Assembly (NCBI GenBank): GCA_050013095.1
Contig: JBEKFY010000016.1
Span: 1,145-65,144 of the forward strand
Direction: 5' to 3'
DNA length: 64,000 nt
From: Anaerolineales bacterium
Lineage (GTDB): Bacteria; Chloroflexota; Anaerolineae; Anaerolineales; Villigracilaceae
Below the pieces are notes generated by a model that made no database searches, was not told the DNA's origin, and was given only the letters and a program-made list of their open reading frames with translations. The position numbers and the translations under genes were made by a program. Of the stretch, positions 1,405 through 33,979 are shown in pieces (position 1 is the stretch's first letter; every line of letters starts with the position of its first letter).

Positions 1405-4400
1405 TTAGCTTATATTATTAAATGGTTTCTTATCTTTAAGTTGTTTAAGGGCCCGAGATTTCATAATATGGGTATCTTGGATCCCATACTTCTCGCAAAT
1501 TCGTTGACGGACATCGTAAGGTACGGGATATACCTGCATATATTGCCATAACAAATGTTTAAATATCGTGACAGCAAATCGATTCTTTCTGATGATTTTA
1601 TAAAGGTCAGTTGTCTCCTTCTCGCGAAAACCCTTAAAATTATCGAGGTGCACTGAGAGATCAATAAATCGGTAAGAGGTATTTTCTGTTGATTGCAATA
1701 ACTCTTTATATGTGAGGGTCAATAGCTCCATTCCTACTGAGTTTGAGACGTGCTTTACCAGCGTAAACGTAAAACCCTCCATGATAGAGAAAAGCAAGAA
1801 TTTCACTTCCTTATTAAGTCTTTCATATGGCCATTTTGGATTCTGAGAATTTAGAATTTCCGCCAGCTTTTGAACCATATCTTCACGGTTTGATTCTATG
1901 GTCTCCAGGATGTATTTCATTACTCGCAATCCGAGAGAATAACACTCTCGTGCAAGGGCAAGTTTTTGTTCGCCCACTAATGAGCCGGAGAAATTTCTAA
2001 GAAGTTGGCCAAGTATTTGTATTGTCTTAAACGCCACATTTAGCTGTAATACTTCCTCCATCTCAATGTCAGATTTCTCTTCGACGATTTCTTCTATCTG
2101 CTTGTCGGTTGAAGGAACTGTATTTTCTGATTCCTTTTGTGATGATTCATCCTGGGAATCACTTGGTACGGGCAGGAATCGCGGAAGATTTGGTATCAGA
2201 TCACTAACACGCTTGGTGTCTTTTGCGATATCACATTCTTGATAAGATGTGAAAAGAACTTTTGAGGAGGTCAATAACGTCTCGAGAATATAAGGGTCCT
2301 TGCATGAATAACACAGAAAGATAAGGATATTTGCCGATTCTGTATTGTGTAGCCGCTCACACATCCAATGAATTAGCCTCTTTATCTCAGGCTGACTTAC
2401 ATGCTCACTTAGATATCTGCCTACAAAATAATAATAAAGATAAGGGTATCTAAATGAGATTCCACTTATATCCATTTGAAGGACGGACACGTCACATAAA
2501 TCATTGAGGATTCTGTCTTGATCTATGATTAATGAATGATTACTGCAATATTCTTGGTGCCAAATAACAAGATCGTCATGATCAATCGTGGAAATATGAT
2601 GGGTGTAAAACGAATACGCCAATTCGGAAAGATAGCTGTATTGAATATCTATATTACCAACCACTTTGGTTTTTTGGGCAAAGGCCATTGTCAATAATGA
2701 CTCGTATACAAAACCATATGTGCCCGACTTAGTGTTTACTGGATTATGAAGCTCGAGTTGTTGTATGATACCCAATACGAAGATTGGATATGAAGGAATG
2801 AAGTTGCTTCCTATTAGAGAAGCTACTAATTTATTTGCTTGCAGAGTACGGTGCTTCAGGTTAGCTTCATCAATAGATTCGGTTTTCCCCAATGCATACC
2901 ACCTCATCACTAATTCTGACCTTTTACCTTCACCAAATTCCATTAGCTCACAGGTAGTAAAATCCATAAAAAGCGTCTGGTCTCCAAGCTTAGTTGAGAT
3001 TAAGTCGCCAAATCGCATTTGGTCATTGCCGAAAAGCACTATCGTATCATAAAGACCTTCTAGTAGCTGAAGAATCTTGTCTTTGCCCCCATGATTAAGT
3101 GAGCATTTCTGAAAATCGTCAACTATGAGAACTTTCATGTCCGGTTCAAGTTGTTCATACGCCGAGTAATTGGGCGACTCATATAATTTCCCAAAATAAC
3201 TTTGAATGTCGGCGATAACGTGGTTTTCATCGCAGTTCTTTAGCTCTTCACCAGGAATCAGTAGAGGGACAAGATTGCGTTTCCTAAAGTCTTTAAATAA
3301 GGATTTTGCCAAAGATGTCTTGCCACATTTCTCGGAGCCGATAAGCAAGACCCTTTTGTTCTTCAATATATATTCTGGTAGCCTTTCACGAACTATCGTT
3401 TTTGACCACTCATCCTCACCTCTAATATGTGTCATCTTTATTGGAGGATCAACAAAAATGTCTTCAAGGTAGACATCGCGCTTATTTGGATGTGTAAATC
3501 GCACCCCTGGGTCTGAAAGTTCTTTTTCGAAATCTGCCCGAAGCGAATACTCTCTCTTCAATCTGAGGTTATTGCGGATTAGGGGACGTGCATCTGCAGC
3601 TTGGTGCTCATACAATTCGTCTTCATCGTTCCATGAAAAGTGATATATCTCGTGAGTCTTATCTTCCAAATTTATGACGATAGCGTTGAATTCGCTGTCT
3701 CGTCTGGATTTTCCTTGTAATGTTCCGCCCTCAATAAACTCAGTTTCGATTGCATGTGGACGAACTTTACTGTAAATATCGCTGTCATGTTCATGGCCAG
3801 TTAAAACAATATCGGATGTTGATTCGATAGATCTTTTAAATGTTCGGGAATTCGTAGCATTTAACCACGGATAGGGATGATGAAATGCAGTAATTACGAT
3901 TAAGGCCGTACCGGATTCGGGGGCAAGCGCCTTTTGCAGATTATTCACAGGAAAGAGTAGTTTCCCCTGAATTTCATTTTTAGACGACATCCAAGCGGTG
4001 TTCAATAAATTGAATCTTATAATACCTTCACCCGCATCAAATTCTTTAAACCCACATAAGCTGATTTCAGGTCCATTAGTTCCATGCCATACTGATGCGA
4101 AATTATAGTAATTGGATTGGACTGAAACAATCTGAGATATAACCTTATCATCAATCTTTTCTTCTGTAATTGACTCTAATAGTAAGTCTCGAACCGAGTC
4201 GGGTGCTGTGAAATCGCAATCATGGTTGCCAGGGACTAACAGGAAATCAATAGCAACATCACTAAGCCGATCTTGCAATGTGGTCTCAATTTGCTTGAAG
4301 AAAGCATGAGCTGCCTGATATTGTTGGACACCCCCTGAAAAGGCAATATCACCCGTAACTAATACGAATATGTGATCAACATTGAGAAATACACCAGCGC

Positions 4401-4494
4401 AAGCACTGGAAATCTTTTCTGTCCGGTTGAGTATAAAATCACTCGGAGATCTACCGAAATGGATGTCGCTAAGATGCAATATTGCAAGTTTCAT
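1405..4494 (-). CDS. Giant fusion protein: calcineurin-like metallophosphoesterase + P-loop (STAND/AAA-like) NTPase + long helical C-terminal region
   Basis: The ORF runs 1405-4551. Preferred start is ATG at 4494, preceded by GGAGGG. All five metallophosphoesterase motifs are present: LSDIHFG (DxH), TGDIAFSG (GD), VPGNHDCDF (GNHD), AFHHPYPW, LTGHEHD. These are followed by Walker A LLIGSEKCGKTS and Walker B KVLIVDDF, an alpha-helical region of about 550 aa, and an acidic linker (DSQDESSQKESEN..EEIVEEKSDIEMEE). Confidence 0.75.
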   Translation of the reverse strand: MKLAILHLSDIHFGRSPSDFILNRTEKISSACAGVFLNVDHIFVLVTGDIAFSGGVQQYQAAHAFFKQIETTLQDRLSDVAIDFLLVPGNHDCDFTAPDSVRDLLLESITEEKIDDKVISQIVSVQSNYYNFASVWHGTNGPEISLCGFKEFDAGEGIIRFNLLNTAWMSSKNEIQGKLLFPVNNLQKALAPESGTALIVITAFHHPYPWLNATNSRTFKRSIESTSDIVLTGHEHDSDIYSKVRPHAIETEFIEGGTLQGKSRRDSEFNAIVINLEDKTHEIYHFSWNDEDELYEHQAADARPLIRNNLRLKREYSLRADFEKELSDPGVRFTHPNKRDVYLEDIFVDPPIKMTHIRGEDEWSKTIVRERLPEYILKNKRVLLIGSEKCGKTSLAKSLFKDFRKRNLVPLLIPGEELKNCDENHVIADIQSYFGKLYESPNYSAYEQLEPDMKVLIVDDFQKCSLNHGGKDKILQLLEGLYDTIVLFGNDQMRFGDLISTKLGDQTLFMDFTTCELMEFGEGKRSELVMRWYALGKTESIDEANLKHRTLQANKLVASLIGSNFIPSYPIFVLGIIQQLELHNPVNTKSGTYGFVYESLLTMAFAQKTKVVGNIDIQYSYLSELAYSFYTHHISTIDHDDLVIWHQEYCSNHSLIIDQDRILNDLCDVSVLQMDISGISFRYPYLYYYFVGRYLSEHVSQPEIKRLIHWMCERLHNTESANILIFLCYSCKDPYILETLLTSSKVLFTSYQECDIAKDTKRVSDLIPNLPRFLPVPSDSQDESSQKESENTVPSTDKQIEEIVEEKSDIEMEEVLQLNVAFKTIQILGQLLRNFSGSLVGEQKLALARECYSLGLRVMKYILETIESNREDMVQKLAEILNSQNPKWPYERLNKEVKFLLFSIMEGFTFTLVKHVSNSVGMELLTLTYKELLQSTENTSYRFIDLSVHLDNFKGFREKETTDLYKIIRKNRFAVTIFKHLLWQYMQVYPVPYDVRQRICEKYGIQDTHIMKSRALKQLKDKKPFNNIS

Positions 4495-4628
4495 ACACCC
4501 TCCCAATATGGATATGCCAAGTTTACAGACCTTCCTTGAAGAAGTATACATTATTATCGATATATAAAACCCGGGTTAATTTCTAGGCATTTGTACCTTC
4601 TTTTAGCTTGAATATTTTTTGAAAAAAC

Positions 4629-7657: not shown

Positions 7658-7860
7658 CGATCTCTTAGTCCGAGAGACGCCGCATCAACTCTGGAGCTGG
7701 ATACCCTCATTCGTCAATCCATCCACGACGGCTACCATCGTCAAATCGAAGTTATTGGGCAGATCATGGCCGGAAGATCAATTCAACTTCATCACATCCC
7801 ATTCTCTGAGAAGAGCCCAGCTTATCCAAATACTCATCACTCTTCATCCATGGAGGAAGT

Positions 7861-9429: not shown

Positions 9430-9519
9430 AGGAAGGTCGGAAGAACCGATCTCATGCTCCAAGTCCCATATAAGTGGTTACGCGCATTACTCAACGCGCT
9501 TTTCATCAGGAGAAAGCTC

Positions 9520-10630: not shown

Positions 10631-10661
10631 TAATCAAAAAGGCCGGCTAATTAGCGGCCTT
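10631..10661 (-). terminator. Rho-independent terminator of the toxin/antitoxin operon
   Basis: On the minus strand: AAGGCCG-loop-CGGCCTT hairpin overlapping the stop codon, followed by TTTTTGATT. Confidence 0.5.
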
Positions 10662-11090: not shown

Positions 11091-11092
11091 AT

Positions 11093-18929: not shown

Positions 18930-20960
18930 TTATTGTCTAAAATGCTTCTTCGAATACTCCAATACTTCACTGGTCGATAACTGTACTGAAGATGGACCAT
19001 TGCGCACATAAAACTCTTCAAGCCCGTCAATCTTCAGGAAAACTGGAGTAGAACTAGTTTTACAATCCACCCGTAAGATTTTCTTATCGTCAATTACTTT
19101 CAGTACATATTGAATTTGATTTACGAACTGCTTGCCTATTTTGCCGTTGATGAGGTTAGCAAAATGAAGCAAATATTTATCATCATTCGGGAGTTGATCC
19201 AGGTCGAGCCCAAGAATATTGCCATTATCCTCCACCCCAACCAACAATATACCACCCTCCGTGTTCAGAAAGGCAACGATCGTTTTCAACACATCATGCT
19301 CAATGCCTTTATCAATCTGTTTTGCCAGGATATTCCAACGAAGGGTAGACTTGAACTCCAGCTTGGCATTTTCGCCAGCTTGTATCAATTTCTCTTCGTC
19401 TGACAACCCTTTCTCTTGAAGCTTTTCAGATACGTTTATAGTCTGCTTTTTATTGTCGGGTTGGGTTACGGGTTTATTGTAATAATGCTGCGGGTACTGC
19501 TTTTCCTCCGCAGTTTTGACAACTATCTCCTCCCCCTCCCCTGAGGCAAAGTACTTGAAAGTTACATCAGGATAAGTGTTGTCAATTCTCATCAATTGGT
19601 CTTTGATACGTTTTCTGCCTTCGATAGAAAACTTCAAAAGCATTTCCACATCTTCTTTGGGTGCTTCACCAGCAGGGAATAAAATCTTTATCAAGCCAGA
19701 TAGCGATTTAGTAATCCCATCCCGATCCCGGGTAGAAATATCATCAGACAGCTCAAAGTTCTCCAAGTATTTTTGAGAGAAATCATAGCTCCTGAGTTTT
19801 CTCAGGATCTCTGCCAGATAATCAACGACGAATCCATATCCACGAGAAAACATCTCACCCCGGATGATTTCCACTTCCCATCCTGGGATGTAAAAATGGA
19901 GGCGATCGAGAAAGGCAGAGTCATAGTATTGGGTAGGAAGGTCGTCGAATAGGTTCGTATGCCTGAGCATATACTCGAGGTCATGGGTGGTATTCCCAAC
20001 AAAGGCCATGGACGCTTCAGCGCCGAGCGTTTCTATGCCTCTTGAAAAAGTTTTATTGGCCATGTAGTTCTTAAGGATATCGACCAATGCCTTATTTGCC
20101 GTTTTCTTCTTACCCGCAAATTCATCGAAAGCGACGATATCCCAGTAACCGACTAATCCAATCCTTCCGGTTGTATTATTCACAAATAGCTTTGGCACAG
20201 TTACTTCTCCACCTGAGATAAGGATCCCATGTGGAGAAAAATCGGAATAAATATGAGACTTGCCTGTCCCCTTGGGACCCAATTCGATCAGGTTGAAATT
20301 GCGCTCGCAGTAGGGAACCAGGCGCATTAATTGGAGCAATTTTGCTCTCGATGAGAACTTTGATGGATCGAAGCCGATGCTTTGGATAAGCAGATCGATC
20401 CATTCGTCCAGCGTGAACTGCTTGCGCGCTTCCAGATACTGTTCGAAATCAAAATTAGACATCTGGATCGGTTTGATCGAGACTAGGATCCAAGGGACAA
20501 CCTTGGGATCATCAGTATATTTGTATTCGATGTCTGAGATACACCAAACTCCACTGACCAGAAGCTTAGGATGCTTCTTGACCGTATCCGAATCGATCCA
20601 TACTTCGCTAATACCCAGATTGGAGAAGGCCGCTTCGTAGGTGTCGTTCCGCTCATTGAGTTCTACGCTGACTTTGTCAATTACCCTATGCCGCCCTTTT
20701 TCCCTGATGAGGGATTTGACAAGATTGGCTTCATTACGATGCACATAATGTTCACGAATTACATCTTTGACCGTCTCTATCCCTGATTGCAAACTGGTTT
20801 CATCTGAAGTAGCACAATATTGGCCCAACAGGTATTCAAGCACGTAGGTCGGTACAACCGCATTACCTCTAACCGCTTTGACCAGGTCCTTGCGGACAAC
20901 CAAGCCAGCAAAGTGTTCGTTGATTTTTTGGTCCAGGTAGTTCATCACATTTCCTTCCAA
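18930..20960 (-). CDS. brxL: BrxL-family AAA+ protein, with the C-terminal Lon-like domain apparently replaced by an AlbA_2/Schlafen-type domain
   Basis: Canonical BrxL N-terminus: LDQKINEHFAGLVVRKDLVKAVRGNAVVPTYVLEYLLGQYCA. Walker A LGPKGTGKSH, Walker B WDIVAFDEFAG. The last 150 aa or so read ENAKLEFKSTL...VLKTIVAFLNTEGGILLVGVEDNGNILGL (AlbA_2 signature). No GPSAG-type Lon serine motif is present. Confidence 0.85.
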   Translation of the reverse strand: MEGNVMNYLDQKINEHFAGLVVRKDLVKAVRGNAVVPTYVLEYLLGQYCATSDETSLQSGIETVKDVIREHYVHRNEANLVKSLIREKGRHRVIDKVSVELNERNDTYEAAFSNLGISEVWIDSDTVKKHPKLLVSGVWCISDIEYKYTDDPKVVPWILVSIKPIQMSNFDFEQYLEARKQFTLDEWIDLLIQSIGFDPSKFSSRAKLLQLMRLVPYCERNFNLIELGPKGTGKSHIYSDFSPHGILISGGEVTVPKLFVNNTTGRIGLVGYWDIVAFDEFAGKKKTANKALVDILKNYMANKTFSRGIETLGAEASMAFVGNTTHDLEYMLRHTNLFDDLPTQYYDSAFLDRLHFYIPGWEVEIIRGEMFSRGYGFVVDYLAEILRKLRSYDFSQKYLENFELSDDISTRDRDGITKSLSGLIKILFPAGEAPKEDVEMLLKFSIEGRKRIKDQLMRIDNTYPDVTFKYFASGEGEEIVVKTAEEKQYPQHYYNKPVTQPDNKKQTINVSEKLQEKGLSDEEKLIQAGENAKLEFKSTLRWNILAKQIDKGIEHDVLKTIVAFLNTEGGILLVGVEDNGNILGLDLDQLPNDDKYLLHFANLINGKIGKQFVNQIQYVLKVIDDKKILRVDCKTSSTPVFLKIDGLEEFYVRNGPSSVQLSTSEVLEYSKKHFRQ

Positions 20961-23453
20961 CTAAAGATCAAAATCCGTATTGAACGAACGCCTGAGTTGA
21001 TAATCCATAGAACGATACTCTCTATAATGCGATGTGCTAGCAACGGATTCTTCCATTTTTAGATAAACCGTTTGATTGTTCACATCATCCGCTTTTCGAC
21101 TCAGGATAAAGCGTACCCGCACTTCCCTCTCACGAGGGTTAGGGGATGCCAAATCAAAATCAAGATAATGAGAATCGGAGATCAGCATATTATCCTGAGT
21201 ATAAATCCCAGCTCGGATGTGTCTGGCTTGAAGCTTAGGAGAAACAGGTTCGGTCTGGAAAAAAACGACCGAAATTTGTCCAGATGAAATGATCGAAGAT
21301 GAACTGGTGATGATATCAACTTCCACAATGCCCACATCGGCTGCACGGATCTTGTTAATCTTGATAACAGGGATGATTACTTCCTGCAAGGCTGCACCAC
21401 CATGGACGTAACGACTTCCTGAACCTTGTAGCCGCAGACGATTGATCGACTTGGGAATCATTACCTGAAAATCACCTGTCAAACCTAATTCGCTGAATTT
21501 AAAATCTTTCATACTTTTATTAGAATTCAATCCATTTCCAATAATAAACCTGCGAGTACGATAATAGATTTCTTCACCCTCGACATCCTGATACGCAAAT
21601 TCGCTTTCATCAAGAGGTTGGTTCTGATAAATAAAACCATGGTCTGAAGTAATTAGAATATTGGAAAAATAGGAATCATACAATTTTTTTAAAATAGCCT
21701 TTATATCTTCAAAGGTTTTATCAATGATATCAAAGACCCTTCCTTCCGATAATTTATCATCGCCAGTGTGGTCAATTTGATCGTGGTAAATATAAACGAC
21801 TTGAGCTCCTTTCGTTACTTCCCGGTATTTATCTCGATTCATCGAGAGTAGGTCTTCGGCGCGAAGTGCAATCGCACCCTTTTCGACCGCATTCGAAAGG
21901 ATATTCGACCGGTTATCAAGGCCTTTCGAGGATTGCCCATCTACTTGGACGCTTCCATCTTTTAATATCGTCAGTTCATGATGAGGTAAAAGAGCCGCCA
22001 TGCCCAGTTGGGTATAGGTTGGTAGCGAAGACAAAATTGGTTCTATCTCTGCTGTATACCCTTCTTCCTTTTCTATCTCTCCAGCTAACTCCTGCCCAAT
22101 CTCATACCGAAGAGCATCCGAGATGATCACTGCAACTTTATTTTTGGTACTTAGATATTCACTTATGTAATGGGTGAAAAACTCAGATTGACTCAGAAAT
22201 GGGGCGGCTTCCCAGATTTGAGCAGAGTCGACAAAATGTTGCCATTTATCATTGAGTTCGAGTAAATAGTTGTTTGAGTAGAGGTTTTCAATCCGTTCTA
22301 TCAATTTTGATAAGAGGGTAGTCGCCTTCGAAGACCGTACATGGAAAATTAATTTTCGGTAGTACTGATCCAGACGATACCAGGTGCTCTGATATTTGCG
22401 GATTCCATCGGGCATGGATTCCATGCGCAGGTCGGCGTTATCCAATTCGTTGACGAATTTGGAGCCGAAATTCAGGGCTTCATAAATGTCGCTGAATTCT
22501 CTGAACCAATGCGTGTTGCGCCTGCGCCAGATAAGATTATCACATTCCCCTGCAGAAAGAGTGCGGTCGAGAATCTGCTGGGTAAGGGTGGCTAGAATTT
22601 TCTTGTCGATTAGCTGGAAATAATCAATATCGATTATTTTTTGGATCGACCGGTTCTGTAAATCATTCTCAATACCCAGAATATCGGCATACTCATTGGA
22701 GAGAGCTTCGAAGGCAGCTTGATAATGGACACTATCTCGCCAACGTTTGAGGAAGACCAGCGCATCTTGCGTGAGAGTCGAAGTCTCTTCAAGGCTTTGG
22801 AAATAACATGCTTTGAAAAGAGTGATCGCAAAGTCCTGAATGCCTGGAGTTTGGGATTTGTAACCAAATTGGGCTTCGAGCCGGCCCCACAGGAATGTAT
22901 CCAAATTACAGAGGTGGATCAACCCAAATCTCTCATGTTTGTCTTCAGCAAGATCCCCCAATAAAATTTCCAGAACGCTTTCCACCCGATTTTCAATATC
23001 ATTGACGCAAACTGCCAGCATCTTGGTTCGAATGGCATTGTGGGTATCATCCGCAACAAGCCGAGACTTGAGGGCAAGGCGACGTTTTTCGTCCTTAAAA
23101 AACTCTATGTGTTCCTGGATCAGATCCCAAAGGCTAGGCGCGAGCTCTAATTCGCTCATCCACAAAGACACCTGATCGCCGCTAAACTCTCCTTGTGCCA
23201 GTAGGACATCCAACAACCAGTTATTCAATTCTTCTGGTTTCGGACCTTCGTGATAGAGCAAGAATTTTTGCCCGGGCTTCACACGCAGGACGTGATATTT
23301 AACTCCATATTCGTTATTCTTCAGTTCAATCTTTTCCACCCCCTCAAGCTGCAGGGATTCAAATTCCTGCCGTAATTCCTTCTTTTCGTCATACCAGAAT
23401 ACGATCCGGTGTTTATCGAAAAGGCGGGTAATGGCCTGTGCAATTTTATCCAT
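20961..23453 (-). CDS. pglZ: BREX PglZ alkaline-phosphatase-superfamily protein
   Basis: An 830-aa protein in the canonical position between pglX and brxL. The PglZ-type core (VAVIISDALRYE ... ILITSDHGF) matches the family signature. Confidence 0.9.
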   Translation of the reverse strand: MDKIAQAITRLFDKHRIVFWYDEKKELRQEFESLQLEGVEKIELKNNEYGVKYHVLRVKPGQKFLLYHEGPKPEELNNWLLDVLLAQGEFSGDQVSLWMSELELAPSLWDLIQEHIEFFKDEKRRLALKSRLVADDTHNAIRTKMLAVCVNDIENRVESVLEILLGDLAEDKHERFGLIHLCNLDTFLWGRLEAQFGYKSQTPGIQDFAITLFKACYFQSLEETSTLTQDALVFLKRWRDSVHYQAAFEALSNEYADILGIENDLQNRSIQKIIDIDYFQLIDKKILATLTQQILDRTLSAGECDNLIWRRRNTHWFREFSDIYEALNFGSKFVNELDNADLRMESMPDGIRKYQSTWYRLDQYYRKLIFHVRSSKATTLLSKLIERIENLYSNNYLLELNDKWQHFVDSAQIWEAAPFLSQSEFFTHYISEYLSTKNKVAVIISDALRYEIGQELAGEIEKEEGYTAEIEPILSSLPTYTQLGMAALLPHHELTILKDGSVQVDGQSSKGLDNRSNILSNAVEKGAIALRAEDLLSMNRDKYREVTKGAQVVYIYHDQIDHTGDDKLSEGRVFDIIDKTFEDIKAILKKLYDSYFSNILITSDHGFIYQNQPLDESEFAYQDVEGEEIYYRTRRFIIGNGLNSNKSMKDFKFSELGLTGDFQVMIPKSINRLRLQGSGSRYVHGGAALQEVIIPVIKINKIRAADVGIVEVDIITSSSSIISSGQISVVFFQTEPVSPKLQARHIRAGIYTQDNMLISDSHYLDFDLASPNPREREVRVRFILSRKADDVNNQTVYLKMEESVASTSHYREYRSMDYQLRRSFNTDFDL

Positions 23454-23461
23454 GGAATGAC

Positions 23462-26400
23462 CTACTCACTCAACCCTGGGATATGACTCAATGCGGAACC
23501 GAATTTATTGTAATTGACCTTAACCCCGTCATCCAGATCAATCTTGACCTGCTCCGTCGCCAACGGATAGAGGATCTCATCCTCATATTCCTTCAACTCG
23601 GACAATACTTTGTCGAACTGGGTAGTCTCTTTCAAGGCTTTCGTCTTCTGGCTTTGACTCGCGCTCCCACTGACCGAGACCGCTTCCAAATGTGATTTGT
23701 GCGACTGGAGTTTCTTGATGTATTCGCGCAAATAGTCATTCAGCACAATGGAGACAGTATCGGGCTGGTAGCGGTGCAAGTAGATCAATGCATTGAAACT
23801 GCCCTTGGGGCTGGAGAACATCCAATAAATAGGACGTTTCTTGTAGGTCTGCATATGGTCTTTGTAGAATTCCTTGACAAAGTAACTGCGAACATCGCGC
23901 CCAATCGACTCTTCGATAAACATAAGGTTTTCGTCGTAATGCTCTTCACCAAATGTGACGCGCAAGAACTTCTTGAAGCGTTCGGCAATATCGTCTTCGA
24001 ACCATTCGCCTTCCAGAACGGGGATGACGTTGTCTTCATCAGGCATGAAGGTTGGCTTGGGGACTTGCTTCAAGTAGTCCTTGATCGTCTCGCCCTGATT
24101 TGCCAGCACCAGACCTGGCTTGTCAAGCGAGTAGCGCCCGAACATACAGCCCACAGCGTAACTGATGAATTCCTTCATCGTATCGGTGCGTAAGAGTGCT
24201 TCCAGTTCTCCTTTGCTTCTTTTACCACCATAACGATAGCGTGGATTGCATGTCAGCGTGATTTCTTCTAGTGGCACTTCGGCCGTCAGTTCGTCTTGCA
24301 GTCCGTAGGCTTCAATGAAGCCACGATTGTTTTCTTCTTCCAATTCGCGCATCTGTTGCGTATGATTAACCCAATCCTGGCGCAGTAGTTCATATGTTTT
24401 ATTAAATATTTCTTGTCGGAAACTAGGATTCAGCAGGGGACATTCGCGAAAACCCCAAGATGTTTCATACATATCCCAATCGGATCGCGCTATGTCGATT
24501 AATTGCTTTCCATTTCTACCAAGCTTCAGGTTTGGTAATGGCGTTTGACTGATTATGCCAGAACTATAGTTAAGTGTTGGGTTCATAATTCCAATTAGAT
24601 TCACCCAAATTTTGCTATTTAATCCAATGAGTAAACCAAATAAATCCGAATCACTACTAAACCCAAAGACTCCTCCAGCCGCATTTGAAATCATTGTGCT
24701 TTCATCAGAAAGTCTAAAGGAGATTTTTCCAAATGAAATAGTTGACCAAGTAATTCCTTTAAGAAAGTAAAGTTCTGTATTAAAAATCCGTCTTGACCAA
24801 TGAGTAGTATTGGGGTCCTTAGGGTTGCTTGTTACCCATGCTTTTATCTCTTTTCCATCATCCCTCCAATTAACTACATGCTCTAAATTTCCAAACCATT
24901 TCCTATATTGCCCCCCTTTTTGGAAAAGATACCAAACTTCTGAGCGCGAAATCGACTCTTCGCGGGATCTTACAACAGAGTTAATATTATTACGTGATGG
25001 TTCCCAGATAAATCTCACAAATCTTTCATTGTCAGATGTGGAAAGTCCGCTACCTACTAATAAAAGTCTACCAATCTTTTTTTCTTTGAATAAAGCAGAT
25101 GTTCCTTTACCAAGCCAATAAGCAATCAGATTGCCAGGAATATCGCTAAAATCAGCGGCTTTTGCATGGTACACAAAGCCGCAATTAGGGTTCTTTATTG
25201 ATTCTCTAATAGCGTTGGCTTTCTTTGCTTCAGTTTTTTCATCAACGAGACGAATATATAGTCCATTACCTTTGGCAAGAACAGACTGCAGGACAAACGC
25301 TGTAGTTGATACTACCTCACCTCCGATACTGTCAAATGCTCTAGCACCTAAATGAGCCATAGACAAAATTGACCAATAATTCAAGATTTTTAACCGCATC
25401 TTCTCAAATGACGATAGAAACATCCAGCTTTGCATAGTGACCATTGAGCTATATCCTTCAGTAAGTACAAAGTCAAAATTACGTTCAATAAACATAGCAA
25501 AGATATCGGATTTACTATCAGGATAAAAATCCTTAGCAAAAATTTTAAGGTCCTCGTTAAACCCGCTACCGCCCATATATGGCGGATTAGTAACAGATAC
25601 ATGGTAGCGGGGTGAAAGAAACTCGGCGAATTTCAACACTTTCAACACGCGCTCATGCACGCTATACAAAAACAGATCCCCGCCCAGGTTCTTCCCCTCC
25701 AACATGCTACGCACATAACCTGCATCGGTCAGCAATGGGCGGATAAGCGAACCAAAGTTATCCGTGTGCTCAAACTGACGCAGGGTCTCCATTAACGGCT
25801 CTGTGAACAGGTCACGCCCAACCGCCTTCGTATACTGCTTTAACTCTGCGTCGGTGAAGGTTACATTCTCGAACACGCAGATATTCGGGTTCGTTTCACG
25901 TGTAAAAAATCGGCGGTCTTTGGCGCGTGCTTTCATCATCATCGCGAACGCCGCTAGCGCTCCGGCGCGCGGGTCAATTTCGAGGCCGAAGAGGTTCTTC
26001 TCAAGGATCAGGCGTGGAATGTCCGCTGGCTGGTATCCTGATTCCTCATAGATGGCATAGAGGAGGTCGAAAGCGAAGGTCAGCATGTGCCCGGATCCGC
26101 AAGCAGGATCGCAAATCCGCAGCTCTTCGGGGTCGGAGACCTTCAGAAAGTCCTTTTCCTCTTGATTTGGTCTTATATAGTATTCCATCTGAGCGACCAG
26201 CTTCGAGTCTGGATGGTTGAGCATCCACAGCCGGCCGAGTGAATTCTCAACCAGGTAGCGTACAATCCAATGCGGGGTGAACAACTGCGTCGCTGCCGGG
26301 ATATCCACAGCCTCTATTTTCTGGTTCTCCTTAAGTGCTTCAAAGACCTCATCCTTGCGCTCCGAAATGTAATACTGGTACAGCCAGCCAATCACCTCCA

Positions 26401-26980
26401 CATCCTCGCACGCCTCGGGCGTCAGAACTTGGCGCAAATCATGCAGGACCGAATTCTCCGAAAGCAGATCCAGCGGCATCAACAGTTCAGTGTAATCGGC
26501 AATCTTTTCGAACAGGAACGGCATTGCTTTGTTATAGAAGTTACACACTCCTACCAGCAACAGGCGGTAGGCTTCCTGTTGCGGATCTGTCGACGGGCGT
26601 TTACCGTTAAGTAGGTCAAAGATCCCCTTCGCATCCACGACGCTTTTTAGATCATTGTCAATGAAGCCGCGCTTGGCTTCCAATAATATTTCGGGCTGAG
26701 TGCCGTTTTCAGCAGGTGATACCACCCCGATCGGAGTATAGTGATTCACGTCCATAAAACGTAATGCACAGAACCGGTTAAACCAGGTATATGCCACGCG
26801 GTCGATGACTGTTTTCTTTGAAGACGCTTCAATCTGTGCCTTCAACTCCGCCACAACCTTCGCCTTCTCACGGATCTCGACACTGTCCGATCGCAACACC
26901 TGCTCCAGGCGCACCGCCACCTGTTCCAATAACTGACGGCGGGCACCCTGAGCAAATTTCTTCAATTTGGTTGTTTCCAT
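23462..26980 (-). CDS. pglX: BREX PglX N6-adenine DNA methyltransferase
   Basis: A 1172-aa protein. SAM-binding ICDPACGSGHML and catalytic VTNPPYMGG (NPPY) motifs. Canonical position after brxC. Confidence 0.9.
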   Translation of the reverse strand: METTKLKKFAQGARRQLLEQVAVRLEQVLRSDSVEIREKAKVVAELKAQIEASSKKTVIDRVAYTWFNRFCALRFMDVNHYTPIGVVSPAENGTQPEILLEAKRGFIDNDLKSVVDAKGIFDLLNGKRPSTDPQQEAYRLLLVGVCNFYNKAMPFLFEKIADYTELLMPLDLLSENSVLHDLRQVLTPEACEDVEVIGWLYQYYISERKDEVFEALKENQKIEAVDIPAATQLFTPHWIVRYLVENSLGRLWMLNHPDSKLVAQMEYYIRPNQEEKDFLKVSDPEELRICDPACGSGHMLTFAFDLLYAIYEESGYQPADIPRLILEKNLFGLEIDPRAGALAAFAMMMKARAKDRRFFTRETNPNICVFENVTFTDAELKQYTKAVGRDLFTEPLMETLRQFEHTDNFGSLIRPLLTDAGYVRSMLEGKNLGGDLFLYSVHERVLKVLKFAEFLSPRYHVSVTNPPYMGGSGFNEDLKIFAKDFYPDSKSDIFAMFIERNFDFVLTEGYSSMVTMQSWMFLSSFEKMRLKILNYWSILSMAHLGARAFDSIGGEVVSTTAFVLQSVLAKGNGLYIRLVDEKTEAKKANAIRESIKNPNCGFVYHAKAADFSDIPGNLIAYWLGKGTSALFKEKKIGRLLLVGSGLSTSDNERFVRFIWEPSRNNINSVVRSREESISRSEVWYLFQKGGQYRKWFGNLEHVVNWRDDGKEIKAWVTSNPKDPNTTHWSRRIFNTELYFLKGITWSTISFGKISFRLSDESTMISNAAGGVFGFSSDSDLFGLLIGLNSKIWVNLIGIMNPTLNYSSGIISQTPLPNLKLGRNGKQLIDIARSDWDMYETSWGFRECPLLNPSFRQEIFNKTYELLRQDWVNHTQQMRELEEENNRGFIEAYGLQDELTAEVPLEEITLTCNPRYRYGGKRSKGELEALLRTDTMKEFISYAVGCMFGRYSLDKPGLVLANQGETIKDYLKQVPKPTFMPDEDNVIPVLEGEWFEDDIAERFKKFLRVTFGEEHYDENLMFIEESIGRDVRSYFVKEFYKDHMQTYKKRPIYWMFSSPKGSFNALIYLHRYQPDTVSIVLNDYLREYIKKLQSHKSHLEAVSVSGSASQSQKTKALKETTQFDKVLSELKEYEDEILYPLATEQVKIDLDDGVKVNYNKFGSALSHIPGLSE

Positions 26981-27002
26981 GAGAATGATGCTCCCGTCTT
27001 GC

Positions 27003-30000
27003 TTATAATCGAATCCGCTTGTTTGCTTTGATGGCCTTCAGCAATGCCTTCTTAAGGGCCTGCAAATAATTCTCAATATCTTCTTCGCTTGCTATATAAG
27101 GTAAATCGAACTTCATGTCCAGTTCGGTTTGCGATACGTATTCGATTGATTTTTCCTTGTCTTTTTTCGTCCAATCTGTGATGCTGGTCAACAGGCGGTT
27201 GTACTCTTTGGTTTCATATTGCCCAATTTGGTCACGGATCACTGCAATAATGTTTTGCCCATGGACGTACGTGACAATCGCCTCAAAAGACTGATCGATT
27301 TCTTTTTTCTGGCTTTCCTTCAATTTGCCGTATTCATCCATAGCCTTGATACGCGTCTGCAGCTGGGATACCTTTTTCAAACCATTTTCTTTTTCTAGCT
27401 TTAATTGTTTATCAATCTCTTTTTTCAGACCATCCAGCAGAGTCTTGGCCTCCCTCATTTTGTTGCCTTTGAAGCAATCGGGTGCTTCGATAATCGCGTT
27501 TAGTTGGCCAGGTTTTTCACTGCCAATACCCGAAAAATTCGGGCCTTGAGTATGTAAAAACTGACTGGCCTCATCGTAAATTGTCTTATTCGATCCCATC
27601 ATAAAAGCTCGGATTGGATCGATAACATTTTCTTTCATGTCGAGCAGCGAATTTTCCTGTTTGGGCAGTTCTGAAAAGTAGAAGGAATAATCCTTCCCGG
27701 CTAGTTCTTGAATGGCTTTGATGGGTTTGTCTAACTCGCTCAGGAAAGGATATAGACTTTTTTGTGAGTAGAGTTCTTTTAGATCCGATAGGGTTTGCTG
27801 AAATGCGTTTCGAACTTCAACTCCCAAATCTTTGGCTTCATTCATGCTGGTGGGTTTATCAAAAAAGTTATTATAGAACTCTTTAACCCGCCTCAACTCA
27901 GACGTTGGTGGAGCTATCTGCGGATCAATGATAACATTTCCGAAGCTATATGTATTTCTTAGCGCCTGTTCAAGAACCGCTCCTTCAAGGATATTAGAAT
28001 CACTTCGCGCTTCGATCTTACCCCGACCTAACAGCATGGCAACCAGACATTGAATGGCAGCCAGATACCATCCATAAGGCTTTTTGGTAAATTTCTCTTC
28101 AATGCCTTTCATCGTTGTGCGCTGGCCCACACTTTTATTGCTCAGGATAAAAGCCAACATTTCTTGTTCCGGTTCCGTGATCGAGTCAATCAATAATGAG
28201 CCCTCGCTAATTTTGAGATACTTTTTAATATCGTTCTCGTCATATTGGGTTTCTTTGAGCATGCTTAGGTTAGGATATGTTCGAATGATCAATTGATTAA
28301 ATCCCTTGACCAGGCGTGTCTTTGGATCATCCCCAGTTACTTCGATCACTGTTCCTGCAACAAAAAATCTTGACCTGGTGATCAATTCACGTACACGATC
28401 CTGAACCAATTTCATTCGGTCTGTATTCTGGCGGGCTTTGCTATCCAGAATACTTAATACCGATTCCTTTTGCTTGTTGGAGCGACTCAGACGTATATAC
28501 TTATCCGTCTTTTTATAATGGAGTAAATCAAAAACCAGGCGGGAATCGGAAGGCATGACAACCATTAACTCTGCTCTTCCTAATGAATTCGCTGTTAGAA
28601 TTTCGATATTATCCACATTCTCACTGAACGGAGTTATGAAGTGAATAGTCAGTTCATGCTCTCGCCCATTGATCTTGTCGTCAAGTTTCTTGGTGAACGG
28701 ATAATCCTGCCCGGTAACATCGTATCGGATCTTTCGGTCACGAATGATTTCTGTAAACAGAATTTCGTCAAGAGCCTCTGCGACATCACCAGAGTCGACG
28801 TCGGTATTTTTAATCTCTTCTTCTATGTCTTTTTCATCATCCGTAAGATACTCATATATTTCCCCGTTTCTCTGGATATAAGTTTGTTGCTCGAGTAAGT
28901 TCAGGGCTTCTTCAATGTCTTTCCTCAGCTTGGAGACATCTTGCGTGAACGTCTCTTGTAGCAAAACTCTCAGATTTCGCGGGGTGGCATTAAATCCCTT
29001 GATATATTTCACCAGGAGGAGAGATTTTAATACCCGGATAGCGAAAAGATTATTAAGGTTGTTCGTGGCTTTATATAATGAGCCAGTAATGAAAGGTTTG
29101 AGAGTGGCCTCGATACCCGCAAACATTAAATCAAAGGTGGCGAGTTCCCCAACATCATTGTTACCGATATCCTTCACCACTTGCTGAAAGACCCCTAGCA
29201 TCGATCGTTCTCCAACTGAACTGTGCCTGCCTTCGAAGGCTCCGTGCGATGATAGGTTTTCAATCGATGATTGGAATAACGTAAATTGATAAGGGACAAA
29301 GGGGTAGCAATTTGTAAAATGTTGCTTATCGGTATAATTTCGATACGTTGTTGCACCATCTGTGAAGGTAAACAAAGTGTCAAAAGTGTTTTTTTCTTTA
29401 TCGTAAGAATTCTCCATAATAGAAGTACCCGTCTTATTTTTGGATAACAGTCGTTTCTGAATAACTTCGTCAACATTCTGACTGGTTAGTTTCAATCTGG
29501 TCTTGAAACGGTCTTGAATCTTTGAAAAGTCATTGGACATTTGTTTGCTCATATCACCAAGTACAGAATCCATATCGGCTTGCGCCGTCACAACCAACCA
29601 CGATTGGCCGTTACATTTTGTTGCTAGGCTCTCGGCAATCGACTGAAGATTGGTCATAAATTTCACATTATCGGCGATATACTGGCCCACTTCATCCACA
29701 AAGAAATTCAACCGGAAACCCGGAGTCTGTTTTTTTATATAGTCACTTACTTCGTTGGCAAAATCTTCGATAGATAGTTTGTAATCCCCGCGATATGCAT
29801 CGATAATGTTTTTATTGGTTTCTTCCTTCGTACCCGATACTTGCGAATAAGCTTTGGCAATGTTCCCTTTTTCTAGGATTACCTCCTCTCGCCCCTTTTC
29901 CCAATCCTTGCCGGCAAGCTCTTTATATGCTCGTTTGAATTTCTCATATAAGCCTCGTTTATCGAGATCACGCTCGAATTGAGCGACGTAACCCTGTTTG

Positions 30001-30461
30001 CTATAGTAACCGCACATCTCATTAAAAACTTTAACGAATACAGTTAGAACCGCATCGATTTCAGTCTTACTAATTGCATCGGCCTTCTGATCAATATTAA
30101 AAAGGATGCTTTTGGATGGAATTGTTACTGCGCGTTTAATATCTGCCTTGAGCATCGCCTCGTTGCATTTGGGTAGGAAATACTCTAGTGTGGGTTTGCC
30201 ATCAATAACTATATTTTCCATAAGCAGCGCCAGCATTTTTAGCAAGTGTGACTTCCCAGAGCCGAAAAAACCGGAAATCCAGACTCCGTTTGCGCCGCGA
30301 TAATCGTTATAGGCTTCTAAGAATTTTTCCAGGCTCTTGGAAATTTCATTGGTAATGACGTATTCTTCCGCTTCAAGCTTCAGACTGGTCAAGTCGTCTG
30401 CTTTAATAACACCCTCGATCGTTCGGTCAATGGGTTTCTCAAAGATCTCTTTCAGTTTCAT
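27003..30461 (-). CDS. brxC: BREX BrxC/PglY P-loop ATPase
   Basis: A 1152-aa protein. Walker A ISGFFGSGKSHLLKML, Walker B-like FFVDEVGQY. Canonical position after brxB. Confidence 0.9.
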   Translation of the reverse strand: MKLKEIFEKPIDRTIEGVIKADDLTSLKLEAEEYVITNEISKSLEKFLEAYNDYRGANGVWISGFFGSGKSHLLKMLALLMENIVIDGKPTLEYFLPKCNEAMLKADIKRAVTIPSKSILFNIDQKADAISKTEIDAVLTVFVKVFNEMCGYYSKQGYVAQFERDLDKRGLYEKFKRAYKELAGKDWEKGREEVILEKGNIAKAYSQVSGTKEETNKNIIDAYRGDYKLSIEDFANEVSDYIKKQTPGFRLNFFVDEVGQYIADNVKFMTNLQSIAESLATKCNGQSWLVVTAQADMDSVLGDMSKQMSNDFSKIQDRFKTRLKLTSQNVDEVIQKRLLSKNKTGTSIMENSYDKEKNTFDTLFTFTDGATTYRNYTDKQHFTNCYPFVPYQFTLFQSSIENLSSHGAFEGRHSSVGERSMLGVFQQVVKDIGNNDVGELATFDLMFAGIEATLKPFITGSLYKATNNLNNLFAIRVLKSLLLVKYIKGFNATPRNLRVLLQETFTQDVSKLRKDIEEALNLLEQQTYIQRNGEIYEYLTDDEKDIEEEIKNTDVDSGDVAEALDEILFTEIIRDRKIRYDVTGQDYPFTKKLDDKINGREHELTIHFITPFSENVDNIEILTANSLGRAELMVVMPSDSRLVFDLLHYKKTDKYIRLSRSNKQKESVLSILDSKARQNTDRMKLVQDRVRELITRSRFFVAGTVIEVTGDDPKTRLVKGFNQLIIRTYPNLSMLKETQYDENDIKKYLKISEGSLLIDSITEPEQEMLAFILSNKSVGQRTTMKGIEEKFTKKPYGWYLAAIQCLVAMLLGRGKIEARSDSNILEGAVLEQALRNTYSFGNVIIDPQIAPPTSELRRVKEFYNNFFDKPTSMNEAKDLGVEVRNAFQQTLSDLKELYSQKSLYPFLSELDKPIKAIQELAGKDYSFYFSELPKQENSLLDMKENVIDPIRAFMMGSNKTIYDEASQFLHTQGPNFSGIGSEKPGQLNAIIEAPDCFKGNKMREAKTLLDGLKKEIDKQLKLEKENGLKKVSQLQTRIKAMDEYGKLKESQKKEIDQSFEAIVTYVHGQNIIAVIRDQIGQYETKEYNRLLTSITDWTKKDKEKSIEYVSQTELDMKFDLPYIASEEDIENYLQALKKALLKAIKANKRIRL

Positions 30462-30476
30462 GGTATTGTTCCTTAT

Positions 30477-31085
30477 CTATTGGAGGCGTTTGAAAATATT
30501 AAAAGCACGGTAGTAATTATCATCAAGAAGCCGTCCAAACAAATTCAAAGAACTTCCTTTTTCAATAGATTGGTTGTACTCCCCGGGGAAAAACATAATT
30601 GTGGGCTTCCCCTTGGCAACAGTTTGCAAGTTATTGAGAACAGTGTGAGATCTGATATATGGGAACACTTCGCCTACCCCAGTAATAAAGATCACAGCAT
30701 AATCGTCTTTTTCCATTTTTTGAGCAATGGCAGGAATCAAATGGGTTTCGGGATCAAGGACGCCCTGAAGCATTTCTTTGAATTCTGATTTCGATAATTT
30801 TGGCTCATCTTCTATGACTTTGTCCCAAACCCCTCTTTCCTTTAAAAGTTCAATCGTCAGATCATATAAATTAATTTTTAATACTTTGATCCCTTTGTTT
30901 TTTAATTGGTTGACAAGCTGCCGATAAATCTTACTCATTTCCTCGAATTCGAAGGGTTGGAATGGGCAAATAAAAAATGGGACTTCGTTTCCCAATCCTT
31001 GCATTTTGAGGAATCTTTGACTGCTGATCGTAGTTAAAAGATATTCATATCTTTCAGTCAGTGATTTATTTTGTATGTCAGCCAT
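30477..31085 (-). CDS. brxB: BREX BrxB (DUF1788)
   Basis: A 202-aa protein. ERYEYLLTTISSQRFLKMQGLGNEVPFFICPFQPFEFEEM fits the DUF1788 pattern. It is the second gene of the operon. Confidence 0.85.
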   Translation of the reverse strand: MADIQNKSLTERYEYLLTTISSQRFLKMQGLGNEVPFFICPFQPFEFEEMSKIYRQLVNQLKNKGIKVLKINLYDLTIELLKERGVWDKVIEDEPKLSKSEFKEMLQGVLDPETHLIPAIAQKMEKDDYAVIFITGVGEVFPYIRSHTVLNNLQTVAKGKPTIMFFPGEYNQSIEKGSSLNLFGRLLDDNYYRAFNIFKRLQ

Positions 31086-31092
31086 AACCCAA

Positions 31093-31701
31093 TTAACCCT
31101 CTACATCAGTTAGCCGCAGTGGGAATATTTGATAACTCGTTGGCGCGTTCGGCTTTAATACCTCTACTACTCGCTTCGAAAGCATCGCCTGGATAATCAG
31201 GTTATCCCCCGAAGTCAGACCGGCCTCTTTTAGCATTCGAAAAACTACTGTTCTTAGTTTGATTCTCGTAGACGAAGTAATTGTTTCCAGGTCATCGTTC
31301 CAATCGGCTTTTCGGTTGAAAAACGCGTCATAATCAAATTCGGTGAGTTGAAGATTTAAACTCATGAATTTATCGTGCAGTACTTCTATCGCAAATTCCT
31401 CTATAATTTTATAGGTTTTACATACCGCAAACCAAAGCAGGTATTTTTGTTCCTGCAGATTACCCTCAACGAGCAATTCAAGCTGCGGTTCAGAAAGGAG
31501 CTCAAGGCGTTGGGTAAGTTCTCGGAAAACCCTCACAGTTCTACTTCCCGTCCTGGATTGAAGGAGATTTTGCTCAAAGATTACCTTCCTGGCTTTTTCC
31601 CAATCTTTGATATTTAAATATACTTCCGCAATTTTTACAGATTCGGGGAGGGATAAACCGGCAGCAGTGAAGGATAACTTATATTTGTTCACAGAAGCCA
31701 T
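31093..31701 (-). CDS. brxA: BREX BrxA (DUF1819)
   Basis: A 202-aa protein. YKLSFTAAGLSLPESVKIAEVYLNIKDWEKARKVIFEQNLLQSRTGSRTVRVFRELTQRL fits the DUF1819 pattern. It is the first gene of the operon. Confidence 0.85.
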   Translation of the reverse strand: MASVNKYKLSFTAAGLSLPESVKIAEVYLNIKDWEKARKVIFEQNLLQSRTGSRTVRVFRELTQRLELLSEPQLELLVEGNLQEQKYLLWFAVCKTYKIIEEFAIEVLHDKFMSLNLQLTEFDYDAFFNRKADWNDDLETITSSTRIKLRTVVFRMLKEAGLTSGDNLIIQAMLSKRVVEVLKPNAPTSYQIFPLRLTDVEG

Positions 31702-33818: not shown

Positions 33819-33907
33819 GCAAAAACCTCCTAGCTGAGATTTTTGCCAACCGCAGTCCTCCGGGTTAACGAAAAACCATAGCCTTGCGAGCTATGGTTCG
33901 TGAAAAG

Positions 33908-33979
33908 TTGCGGGGGCTGGACTCGAACCAGCGACCTCCAGGTTATGAGCCTGACGAGCTGCCACTGCTCTACCCCGCG
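33908..33979 (-). tRNA. tRNA-Met (anticodon CAT), probably initiator
   Basis: Reverse complement: CGCGGGG-TA-GAGC-AGTGGCA-GCTC-G-TCAGG-CTCATAA-CCTGG-AGGTC-GCTGG-TTCGAGT-CCAGC-CCCCGCA-A. The C1/A72 mismatch is typical of bacterial initiators. The anticodon stem has only two of the usual three consecutive G:C pairs. No CCA is encoded. Confidence 0.9.

Follow-up and report, generated by a model that had tools for sequence, protein, structure and literature searches.

A divergent DS-8-family protein, a probable antiphage ATPase, as cargo of a tRNA-Met integrative island in an uncultured Anaerolineales bacterium

Within a stretch of 64,000 nucleotides (nt) from an Anaerolineales bacterium (GenBank assembly GCA_050013095.1, contig JBEKFY010000016.1, positions 1,145 to 65,144; the whole stretch is referred to as "the window"), the gene at positions 1405-4494 codes for an unusually large fusion of a metallophosphoesterase with a P-loop NTPase. 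The question raised by this locus is whether this protein stands for a new kind of antiviral defence or for a known one in a distant guise, and what its phosphoesterase might act on. A first-pass annotation, made from the DNA letters, had proposed a STAND/NLR-like single-gene defence candidate with a new effector class, not recognizable as any named, experimentally validated system. According to the present analysis, the gene is most probably a divergent member of the DS-8 family, i.e., it encodes a single-protein STAND (NLR-like) antiphage ATPase that is carried as cargo of an integrative defence island at a tRNA-Met gene. The structural call of the earlier annotation is correct; its "unnamed, unvalidated" part has been overtaken by the literature.

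The protein (the query) is placed in one family because the NCBIfam, PADLOC and Pfam libraries agree independently. It scores 965.7 bits with the NCBIfam equivalog NF053861.1 (DS8_antiphage), for which the curated cutoff is 790, with residues 7-1005 aligning onto positions 1-994 of the 994 profile positions. Both models of PADLOC PDC-S60 are matched strongly (E 2.7e-98 for residues 316-1022 and E 2.8e-37 for residues 4-481), while the model PDLC05050 aligns solely from its position 190 on, so that it probably stands for a variant whose N-terminal effector differs. PDC entries in PADLOC are predicted, unvalidated candidates (PMC11514479), which sets PDC-S60 apart from the validated DS-8.

DS-8 was named in the DefensePredictor study (bioRxiv January 2025/Science 2026; PMC13092281), where the 1014-amino acid (aa) Escherichia coli "metallophosphoesterase" WP_032203427.1 was cloned into strain MG1655 and tested with 24 phages, and where it is described as a single-protein system composed of a metallophosphatase and a NACHT domain (PMC13092281). 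Phage protection by the E. coli protein was abolished by each of the exchanges D52A, N84A and K375A individually (PMC13092281). Counted along the published DS-8 sequence, these residues are the GD aspartate, the GNHD asparagine and the Walker A lysine, whose equivalents in the query are D49 and N90, both invariant among 65 homologues, and K392, conserved in at least 90% of them. The study hence comprises the very experiment which the first-pass annotation had suggested, namely cloning, a phage panel, two phosphoesterase mutants and a Walker A lysine-to-alanine mutant (PMC13092281). Given that the metallophosphoesterase-STAND fusion carries the name DS-8 and has been phage-challenged with catalytic mutants in E. 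coli (PMC13092281), and that the query passes the DS8_antiphage equivalog and PDC-S60, neither the claim of an unnamed and unvalidated system nor that of a new effector class can be upheld; with the system already named, the claim to novelty falls and the architecture call stands.

At the level of pairwise comparison, the query is 28% identical (E 9e-38) to the N-terminal 399 aa of DS-8 as published in Table S8, and a 635-aa Citrobacter protein, itself 81% identical to DS-8, aligns collinearly with the query over 605 residues at 27% identity (E 1e-61). When the gene was searched for by megablast and blastn in 5,426 complete E. coli genomes, no match was obtained, so that the kinship with DS-8 is detectable at the protein level only. 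The two proteins have in common a single chain of ~1015-1030 aa in which a metallophosphoesterase is joined to a STAND NTPase and a helical C-terminus; they differ in their hosts—an enterobacterium versus an uncultured bacterium of ~60% GC—and share only 27-28% identical residues. What is new is, thus, a distant, intact DS-8 ortholog from an environmental bacterium, while the DS-8 system itself is already known.

The gene and the domains of its product are arranged as follows:

1405..4494, minus strand: complete DS-8-family coding sequence, 1029 aa plus stop (open reading frame (ORF) and translation, NF053861.1, PDC-S60)
4498..4504, minus strand: Shine-Dalgarno sequence GGGAGGG, 3 nt ahead of the ATG at 4494 (direct reading of the sequence)
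3595..4494, minus strand: binuclear metallophosphoesterase effector domain, residues 1-300 (Pfam, motifs, Foldseek, replacement by TIR)
3385..3594, minus strand: conserved linker, residues 301-370, consensus LxDPGAxFTHP...DIFVYPDLR (family alignment)
2935..3384, minus strand: P-loop nucleotide-binding domain, residues 371-520 (Walker motifs, weak AAA-type Pfam matches, Foldseek)
2395..2934, minus strand: helical and winged-helix domains of the STAND module, residues 521-700 (Pfam nSTAND_NTPase4, secondary structure of the model)
1480..2394, minus strand: all-helical C-terminal domain, putative sensor or regulator, residues 701-1005 (AlphaFold2, conservation)

The ORF call at this locus yields a single long frame on the minus strand (1405..4551), with the plus strand being riddled with stop codons over the same 1405-4551 interval. 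The intact 1029-aa protein reported earlier was, thus, confirmed, the sole correction being the minus strand, as the strand had been left unstated. Translation starts at the ATG at 4494, with the product beginning MKLAILHLSDIHF; this start is preferred over the upstream ATG at 4551 because of the GGGAGGG Shine-Dalgarno sequence and because the N-termini of homologues coincide with it (consensus MKxLxLHLSDIH in the alignment of 65 family sequences). A scan for promoters and terminators around the gene gave no signal exceeding the shuffled expectation. The GC content of the gene is 0.39. The same protein is found, identical, on 19 metagenome contigs, and the window agrees at 100% identity with a 100.9-kb JGI metagenome contig across their 14.5-kb overlap. 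Conservation, as given here and below, was scored on the 65-sequence family alignment, the members of which are 30-44% identical to the query; the same alignment served as input for an AlphaFold2 model of the whole protein with a mean predicted local distance difference test (pLDDT) score of 83.6.

The N-terminal 300 residues are modelled by AlphaFold2 as an alpha/beta sandwich phosphoesterase with a small terminal beta-sandwich, and Pfam Metallophos (PF00149) matches residues 5-237 with 36.9 bits (E 6.5e-9) at a gathering score of 21.5. All sequence hallmarks of the calcineurin-like metallophosphoesterase superfamily (DxH, GD, GNH[DE], H and GHxH) are present, located in SDIH at residue 9, GDIAF at 48, GNHD at 89, HHP at 205 and GHEHD at 233. 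Invariant are S9, D10, H12, G48, D49, G89, N90, H91, D92, H205, H206, G233, H234 and H236; since this invariance extends over homologues with no more than 30-44% identity to the query, the motif matches are not random. The calcineurin-like phosphoesterase read from the letters is, thereby, borne out by a Pfam match above the gathering score and by five invariant motifs.

Among solved structures, the top Foldseek match of the N-terminal domain in the PDB is Bacillus subtilis YydB within an integrative YydD-YydB model (E 3.5e-15), a protein for which a literature search returned no usable information. It is followed by GpdQ (5e-7), Lmo2642 (1e-6), purple acid phosphatase (1e-6), SMPDL3B and SMPDL3A (1-2e-6) and Rv0805 (8e-6), with SbcD/Mre11 appearing at 1.5e-4 or weaker. 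A profile search of PDB sequences gave a similar ranking for GpdQ (1.5e-6) and SbcD/Mre11 (2.5e-3 or weaker, 0.0025-0.01), with Rv0805 at 0.04. The likeness to SMPDL3A that is emphasised in the DS-8 paper is, therefore, real yet not privileged. The GpdQ/Rv0805/SMPDL3A-B class has the fold and the five metal-binding motifs in common with the N-terminal domain and comprises its best solved relatives; however, these are stand-alone enzymes without an NTPase, and at just 11-16% identity, a common substrate specificity cannot be assumed. The PADLOC library additionally contains a model, PDLC00736 (category "Effector", description "Endonuclease"), that matches residues 1-291 with E 9.9e-19.

An assignment to the SbcCD/Mre11-Rad50 repair complex was rejected, as TIGR00619 scores 17.2 bits (E 0.0034) at a cutoff of 77.65 and there is no conserved partner gene. 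The likeness to this complex lies in the superfamily fold and in an associated ATPase; in the query, however, the ATPase is a fused STAND P-loop module, whereas SbcC/Rad50 is a separate, SMC-like partner. The possibility that the protein is merely an SbcCD-type repair enzyme, which had been named as a potential objection to the defence reading, hence did not materialise; at the same time, the "Mre11/SbcD-like" option for the effector has lost ground, with SbcD/Mre11 falling far below the GpdQ/Rv0805/SMPDL3-type matches in the Foldseek and in the PDB profile search.

The central part of the protein has the marks of the STAND NTPase superfamily, namely a P-loop, helical and winged-helix domains, and the nSTAND_NTPase4 profile. 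Walker A (GSEKCGKT) begins at residue 386 (G386-T393) and Walker B (LIVDDF) at 456 (region 455-460), with G391 and D459 being invariant and K392 and T393 conserved at 90% or more. Both Walker motifs and the phosphoesterase motifs, thus, lie where the first-pass annotation had put them and are conserved across the 65 homologues. Pfam nSTAND_NTPase4 matches residues 636-691 with 43.4 bits (E 3.5e-11) at a gathering score of 27, and Foldseek retrieves NLRC4, NLRP9 and NLRP3 for the central region (1e-8 to 4e-7) as well as, weakly, Avs4 with the whole chain (5e-5). The effector-NTPase-C-terminal domain layout of STAND/NLR-like proteins is, hence, corroborated by the Pfam profile, the AlphaFold2 model and the structural matches.

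With regard to a finer classification, membership in Avs1-5 (AVAST) was dismissed, as no Avs profile matches and the C-terminal domain is without a significant structural match; no Avs or NACHT model was among the PADLOC matches at E ≤ 1. Likewise, membership by NACHT/bNACHT profile was dismissed, with no NACHT family (PF05729) among the Pfam matches at E ≤ 1; what speaks for such a relation is the structural likeness together with bNACHT01, which came up as a remote homologue in the HHblits analysis of the DS-8 paper (PMC13092281). The protein is best called nSTAND4/NACHT-like. Its three-part build, from an effector through a STAND NTPase to a C-terminal domain, follows the same logic as that of Avs, bNACHT and animal NLRs; the protein differs from them in that its C-terminal domain is not composed of TPR, LRR or WD40 repeats and in that its effector is a metallophosphoesterase.

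Residues 520-1005 are nearly all helix in the AlphaFold2 model, in keeping with the long helical C-terminus noticed earlier; at residues 775-812 (nt 2059-2172), the helices give way to an acidic, disordered linker. Modelled separately, the C-terminal 330 residues reach a pLDDT of 89 and a predicted template-modelling score (pTM) of 0.85. The structure search of the C-terminal domain against the PDB gave no significant match and, thus, no solved relative (best E 0.048); the best matches, at E ≥ 0.05, are generic helical repeats and 14-3-3 proteins and were left uninterpreted. The mean identity to the query amounts to 0.39 for the C-terminal domain and 0.37 for the catalytic domain, and the residues G829, Q830, K844 and R857, contained in the motif INVAFKTIQILGQ(I/L)LRN, are invariant. 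The query, thus, sharpens which DS-8 positions are truly invariant, with four of them lying in the C-terminal domain.

That the N-terminal domain acts as an exchangeable effector is supported by plasmid-borne relatives. In tblastn searches of plasmids, full-length relatives were found in Clostridium botulinum and Paenisporosarcina, and TIR-annotated proteins of Vibrio parahaemolyticus, Lactococcus and Streptococcus were aligned only from ~residue 321 to the C-terminus. The Vibrio example is encoded as follows:

Plasmid NZ_CP034287.1, locus L014 7491-10112: Vibrio parahaemolyticus TIR-nSTAND4 gene, with TIR replacing the metallophosphoesterase

Its product, WP_159404407.1 (pVPHB2014-1; 873 aa), carries Pfam TIR_2 at residues 7-108 followed by nSTAND_NTPase4 and is 25% identical to query residues 321-1018 (E 2e-60), with the C-terminal ILGQ..RN motif being included. 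Judged from these alignments, one and the same scaffold bears either a metallophosphoesterase or a TIR domain; as TIR occupies the place of the phosphoesterase, the N-terminus can be regarded as an exchangeable effector with a boundary near residue 320, and the shared scaffold begins at ~residue 321, where the alignment of the TIR variants starts. The effector role assigned to the N-terminal domain in the first-pass annotation is strengthened by this substitution. The TIR-nSTAND4 proteins share the linker, the NTPase and the C-terminal domain with the query, but have TIR instead of a metallophosphoesterase at the N-terminus, which makes them a candidate sister architecture of DS-8. Calcineurin-like phosphoesterases had earlier been listed among the predicted effectors fused to STAND NTPases (PMC8195603).

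DS-8-like phosphoesterase modules also occur in other surroundings, where this scaffold is missing. One heads a "GTPase-associated system" (GASH) operon on Agrobacterium plasmid pAtCFBP6624 (L176 5001-8388), another is fused into a 1422-aa protein beside UvrD-like helicases on a Bacillus cereus plasmid (L177 5001-9269), and a remnant lies between transposases in Deinococcus. By their gene content, the Agrobacterium and B. cereus cases look like further predicted conflict systems with the same effector.

The family is sizeable and patchily distributed. More than 944 homologues are contained in the protein collection, nearly all of them 1015-1045 aa long and endowed with the same two Pfam domains, the nearest full-length one being 44% identical to the query. 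Relatives are encoded in at least 319 of ~185,000 species-representative genomes (GTDB), in a patchy manner across Chloroflexota, Acidobacteriota, Myxococcota, Verrucomicrobiota, Bacteroidota, Bacillota, Planctomycetota, Nitrospirota, Campylobacterota and Proteobacteria; a tblastn search of 50,697 phage records revealed no homologue. Gene neighbourhoods were analysed for the best 80 of the 319 GTDB species-genome loci, and the clustering covered 81 loci. All-against-all clustering of the neighbouring ORFs at these 81 loci revealed no partner gene exceeding 8/81, which argues for a single-gene system, as had been assumed.

The expectation that homologues reside near other defence genes was borne out in part. 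Counting PADLOC models at E ≤ 1e-10, 257 were matched by ORFs within 4 kb of a homologue (132 ORFs, 68 loci) versus 32 by the 148 ORFs located 6.5 kb or more away, a contrast that is semi-quantitative, as it tallies models rather than genes on crude ORF calls (the composition-based ORF caller still selects some antisense ORFs, e.g., for the ribonucleotide reductase of Longilinea). The proximal matches are mainly type I restriction-modification, Mads and PDC-S02. From eight individually inspected homologue contexts, two lie beside type I restriction-modification or pAgo genes together with transposases, and two show weaker hints (an HsdS fragment with DUF3800; small toxin-antitoxin-like genes); the remaining four, which count on the other side, are taken up below. 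Which genes flank the homologue varies among the contexts inspected one by one, as would be expected of a system without an obligatory partner.

The largest neighbour cluster is ribonucleotide reductase (RNR), which is found directly upstream on the same strand at 8 of the 81 DS-8 homologue loci. In seven of these, it is the class II enzyme NrdJ (Longilinea, Herpetosiphon, four Acidobacteriota and one Gemmatimonadales), preceded by NrdR in both Chloroflexota loci examined; in Salinisphaera, it is the class Ia pair NrdA-NrdB, with the DS-8 homologue starting 50 nt past nrdB. At six of the eight loci, a gap of 15-145 nt separates the RNR from the DS-8 gene. Given a pairwise similarity of 0.21-0.37 between the RNR-linked DS-8 proteins, except for two close pairs, the link involves at least six separate DS-8 lineages. 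The RNR-linked loci are:

L016, 7431-13057
L023, 5695-13077
L027, 6990-13051
L033, 6986-13048
L042
L046
L074, 5628-11268
L082, 5400-13045 (also L107 and L125)

An independent sample of metagenome contigs bears the link out weakly, with two Acidobacteriota-like cases among 62 loci that include upstream sequence; the link is absent from the window, and the DS-8 paper makes no mention of RNR (PMC13092281). The association may reflect an insertion hotspot or else a regulatory or functional coupling. Together with the swap of TIR for phosphoesterase, it offers a cheap lead on substrate, trigger and the role of the C-terminal domain.

How might such a protein stop a phage? The scheme with the best support follows the usual course of STAND proteins. 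In the uninfected cell, the DS-8-family protein would be an autoinhibited monomer. Upon infection, a cue would be sensed via the C-terminal domain, leading to ATP-dependent oligomerisation of the STAND module, by which the N-terminal phosphoesterases would be brought into proximity and activated. Once active, they would cleave a phosphodiester or pyrophosphate substrate that is essential, so that the phage could no longer replicate; the host would probably pay for this with its own growth. Here, we infer autoinhibition, trigger, substrate and an abortive-infection outcome, with oligomerisation, trigger and outcome being modelled by analogy on Avs and NLR proteins.

Concerning the substrate, we lean slightly towards a small nucleotide-type molecule, the cleavage of which would act via depletion of a nucleotide pool or cofactor; DNA is an unlikely target in our estimation, and something else altogether is a little less expected still. 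The TIR domain is a consumer of nicotinamide adenine dinucleotide (NAD) in other systems, and its interchangeability with the phosphoesterase is one of the reasons for this leaning; the others are that the closest relatives of solved structure act on small phosphodiesters or nucleotides, not DNA, that a single-gene system gains nothing by merely erasing a signalling nucleotide, and that the RNR linkage hints at nucleotide metabolism. Alternatively, the same STAND protein might carry a cyclic-nucleotide phosphodiesterase which removes a second messenger made by phage or host. An HHP fourth motif is typical of class III cyclic nucleoside monophosphate phosphodiesterases, and the query has HHP in this position; SMPDL3A/B, Rv0805 and Lmo2642, i.e., cyclic-nucleotide or nucleotide phosphodiesterases, are all found by Foldseek at 1e-6 to 8e-6, and SMPDL3A is the protein to which the domain is aligned in the DS-8 paper (PMC13092281). 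Yet GpdQ, purple acid phosphatase and YydB score equal to or above SMPDL3A, neither a cyclase nor any other gene for making a signal is conserved beside the family at the 81 loci, destruction of a signal is the behaviour of an immune antagonist and would not alone stop a phage, and the same scaffold bears TIR, a consuming or toxic effector, so that we regard removal of a messenger as improbable. In our view, it is doubtful as well that the effector is a nuclease of the Mre11/SbcD kind which, once activated, would break down the DNA of phage and/or host in the manner of Avs3/Avs4-type nuclease effectors. Nucleases are the most common STAND effectors, and both the "Endonuclease" model PDLC00736 and weak SbcD/Mre11 matches (TIGR00619 at 0.0034, PDB chains at 0.0025-0.01, Foldseek at 1.5e-4) point in this direction; however, SbcD/Mre11 rank well under the small-molecule phosphodiesterases in sequence and structure searches, no SbcC/Rad50 partner emerged from the neighbour clustering, and the PADLOC "Endonuclease" is a name, not a tested activity.

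A more fundamental objection would be that the gene does not serve defence in this bacterium, and is instead a housekeeping or regulatory STAND ATPase linked to nucleotide metabolism, or else is carried along by the island as an addiction gene or a passenger in decay. Four of the eight inspected homologues sit among housekeeping genes, and 8 of 81 loci have the gene directly downstream of RNR operons. Against this stand the phage protection conferred by the tested family member (PMC13092281), the intactness of the gene with all catalytic residues and its identical recurrence on the 19 metagenome contigs, the patchy occurrence across phyla, the passing of the equivalog cutoff and the location in a 36-kb island dense with defence systems, which together render a non-defence role very improbable. 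Several points nevertheless weigh against our preferred reading of a DS-8-type defence ATPase with a small-nucleotide substrate. Protection has been seen for the E. coli homologue, and its extension to a query with only 27-28% identity from an uncultured host would be by sequence kinship; the last ~400 residues are matched with DS-8 through the NCBIfam profile only; oligomerisation and trigger are assumed by analogy with Avs/NLR proteins; half of the inspected contexts are housekeeping surroundings; and the proximal/distal contrast in PADLOC models has the semi-quantitative character stated above. As to the substrate, the leaning is indirect, the domain is matched by an effector model labelled "Endonuclease" at E ~1e-18, and the DS-8 authors prefer a cyclic nucleotide (PMC13092281).

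Speculatively, the DS-8-type effector might, instead of degrading a cyclic-nucleotide signal, deplete a nucleotide pool or cofactor (deoxynucleoside or nucleoside triphosphates (dNTPs/NTPs), NAD-derived compounds or dinucleoside polyphosphates), the RNR placement would reflect coupling to dNTP supply, and what the C-terminal domain detects would be a host factor or a small molecule that is conserved, and not some variable protein of the phage, a combination that we consider a long shot. If true, the RNR placement could mean read-through expression once NrdR is derepressed during infection.

In the window, the DS-8-family gene forms part of an island that is inserted at a tRNA-Met gene and comprises the following features:

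33907..33979, minus strand: tRNA-Met gene, integration site of the island (ARAGORN; Rfam, 63.4 bits)
33905..33950, no strand: 46-bp attachment-site repeat corresponding to the 3' part of tRNA-Met (exact second copy outside the window)
32823..33818, minus strand: island integrase, a tyrosine recombinase (Pfam Phage_integrase, E 5.6e-30)
18930..31701, minus strand: complete type I BREX system with BrxA, BrxB, BrxC, PglX, PglZ and BrxL (Pfam)
15822-17621, minus strand: GmrSD-type gene with GmrSD_N (Pfam)
12425-13765, minus strand: NERD gene (Pfam)
10647-11593, minus strand: SocA/Panacea module with the antitoxin at 11093-11593 and an upstream partner ORF (Pfam, PADLOC)

On the same contig, the 46-bp repeat recurs as a second exact copy, 2.4-2.5 kb to the left of where the window begins (L001 16941-16986, i.e., window -2491..-2446), and the two repeats delimit an island of 36,396 bp. 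The island has a GC content of 0.445 versus 0.595 for the chromosome to the right, and Pfam identifies all of the claimed neighbours, so that the AT-rich defence island with BREX, GmrSD, NERD and toxin-antitoxin genes described in the first-pass annotation is authenticated. Immediately beyond the left repeat, there is a gene for a second integrase that is 53% identical to the first, an indication of tandem islands at tRNA-Met.

Several further observations were made in the island. In BrxL (18930-20960), the usual N-terminal and ATPase domains are followed by a C-terminal Schlafen AlbA_2 domain (residues 530-661, E 9.6e-19), and no Lon-protease-type domain is reported for this protein. Between BrxL and the GmrSD-type gene, an ORF of 342 aa (17747-18775) matches PADLOC PDC-S18 (E 7e-11) and has no Pfam match. 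A 92-nt tRNA-Lys(CTT) was called by ARAGORN at 11848-11939, between the SocA module and the NERD gene; it does not reach the Rfam gathering threshold and could be either a spurious call or what is left of a degenerate tRNA-like sequence, and Rfam over positions 1-35000 gave nothing besides tRNA-Met.

Closer to the DS-8-family gene, the block at 5108-10389 comprises three consecutive or overlapping ORFs, two of which match Phage_integrase and the middle one, weakly, MerR, followed by two unannotated ORFs (522 and 311 aa). The GC content of this block (0.46-0.54) is above that of the rest of the island, and it could represent a mobile element of the recombinase-in-trio-like kind that is nested in the island beside the DS-8 gene. 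On the other side, convergent with the DS-8 gene, a 594-aa protein, likewise cargo of the island, is encoded at window positions 1-1205 and further to the left (L001 13290-15074), with a faint pentapeptide-repeat match and no PADLOC match. Left of the window, this gene is followed by a PhD/PIN pair, which is island cargo, and by two helix-turn-helix genes.

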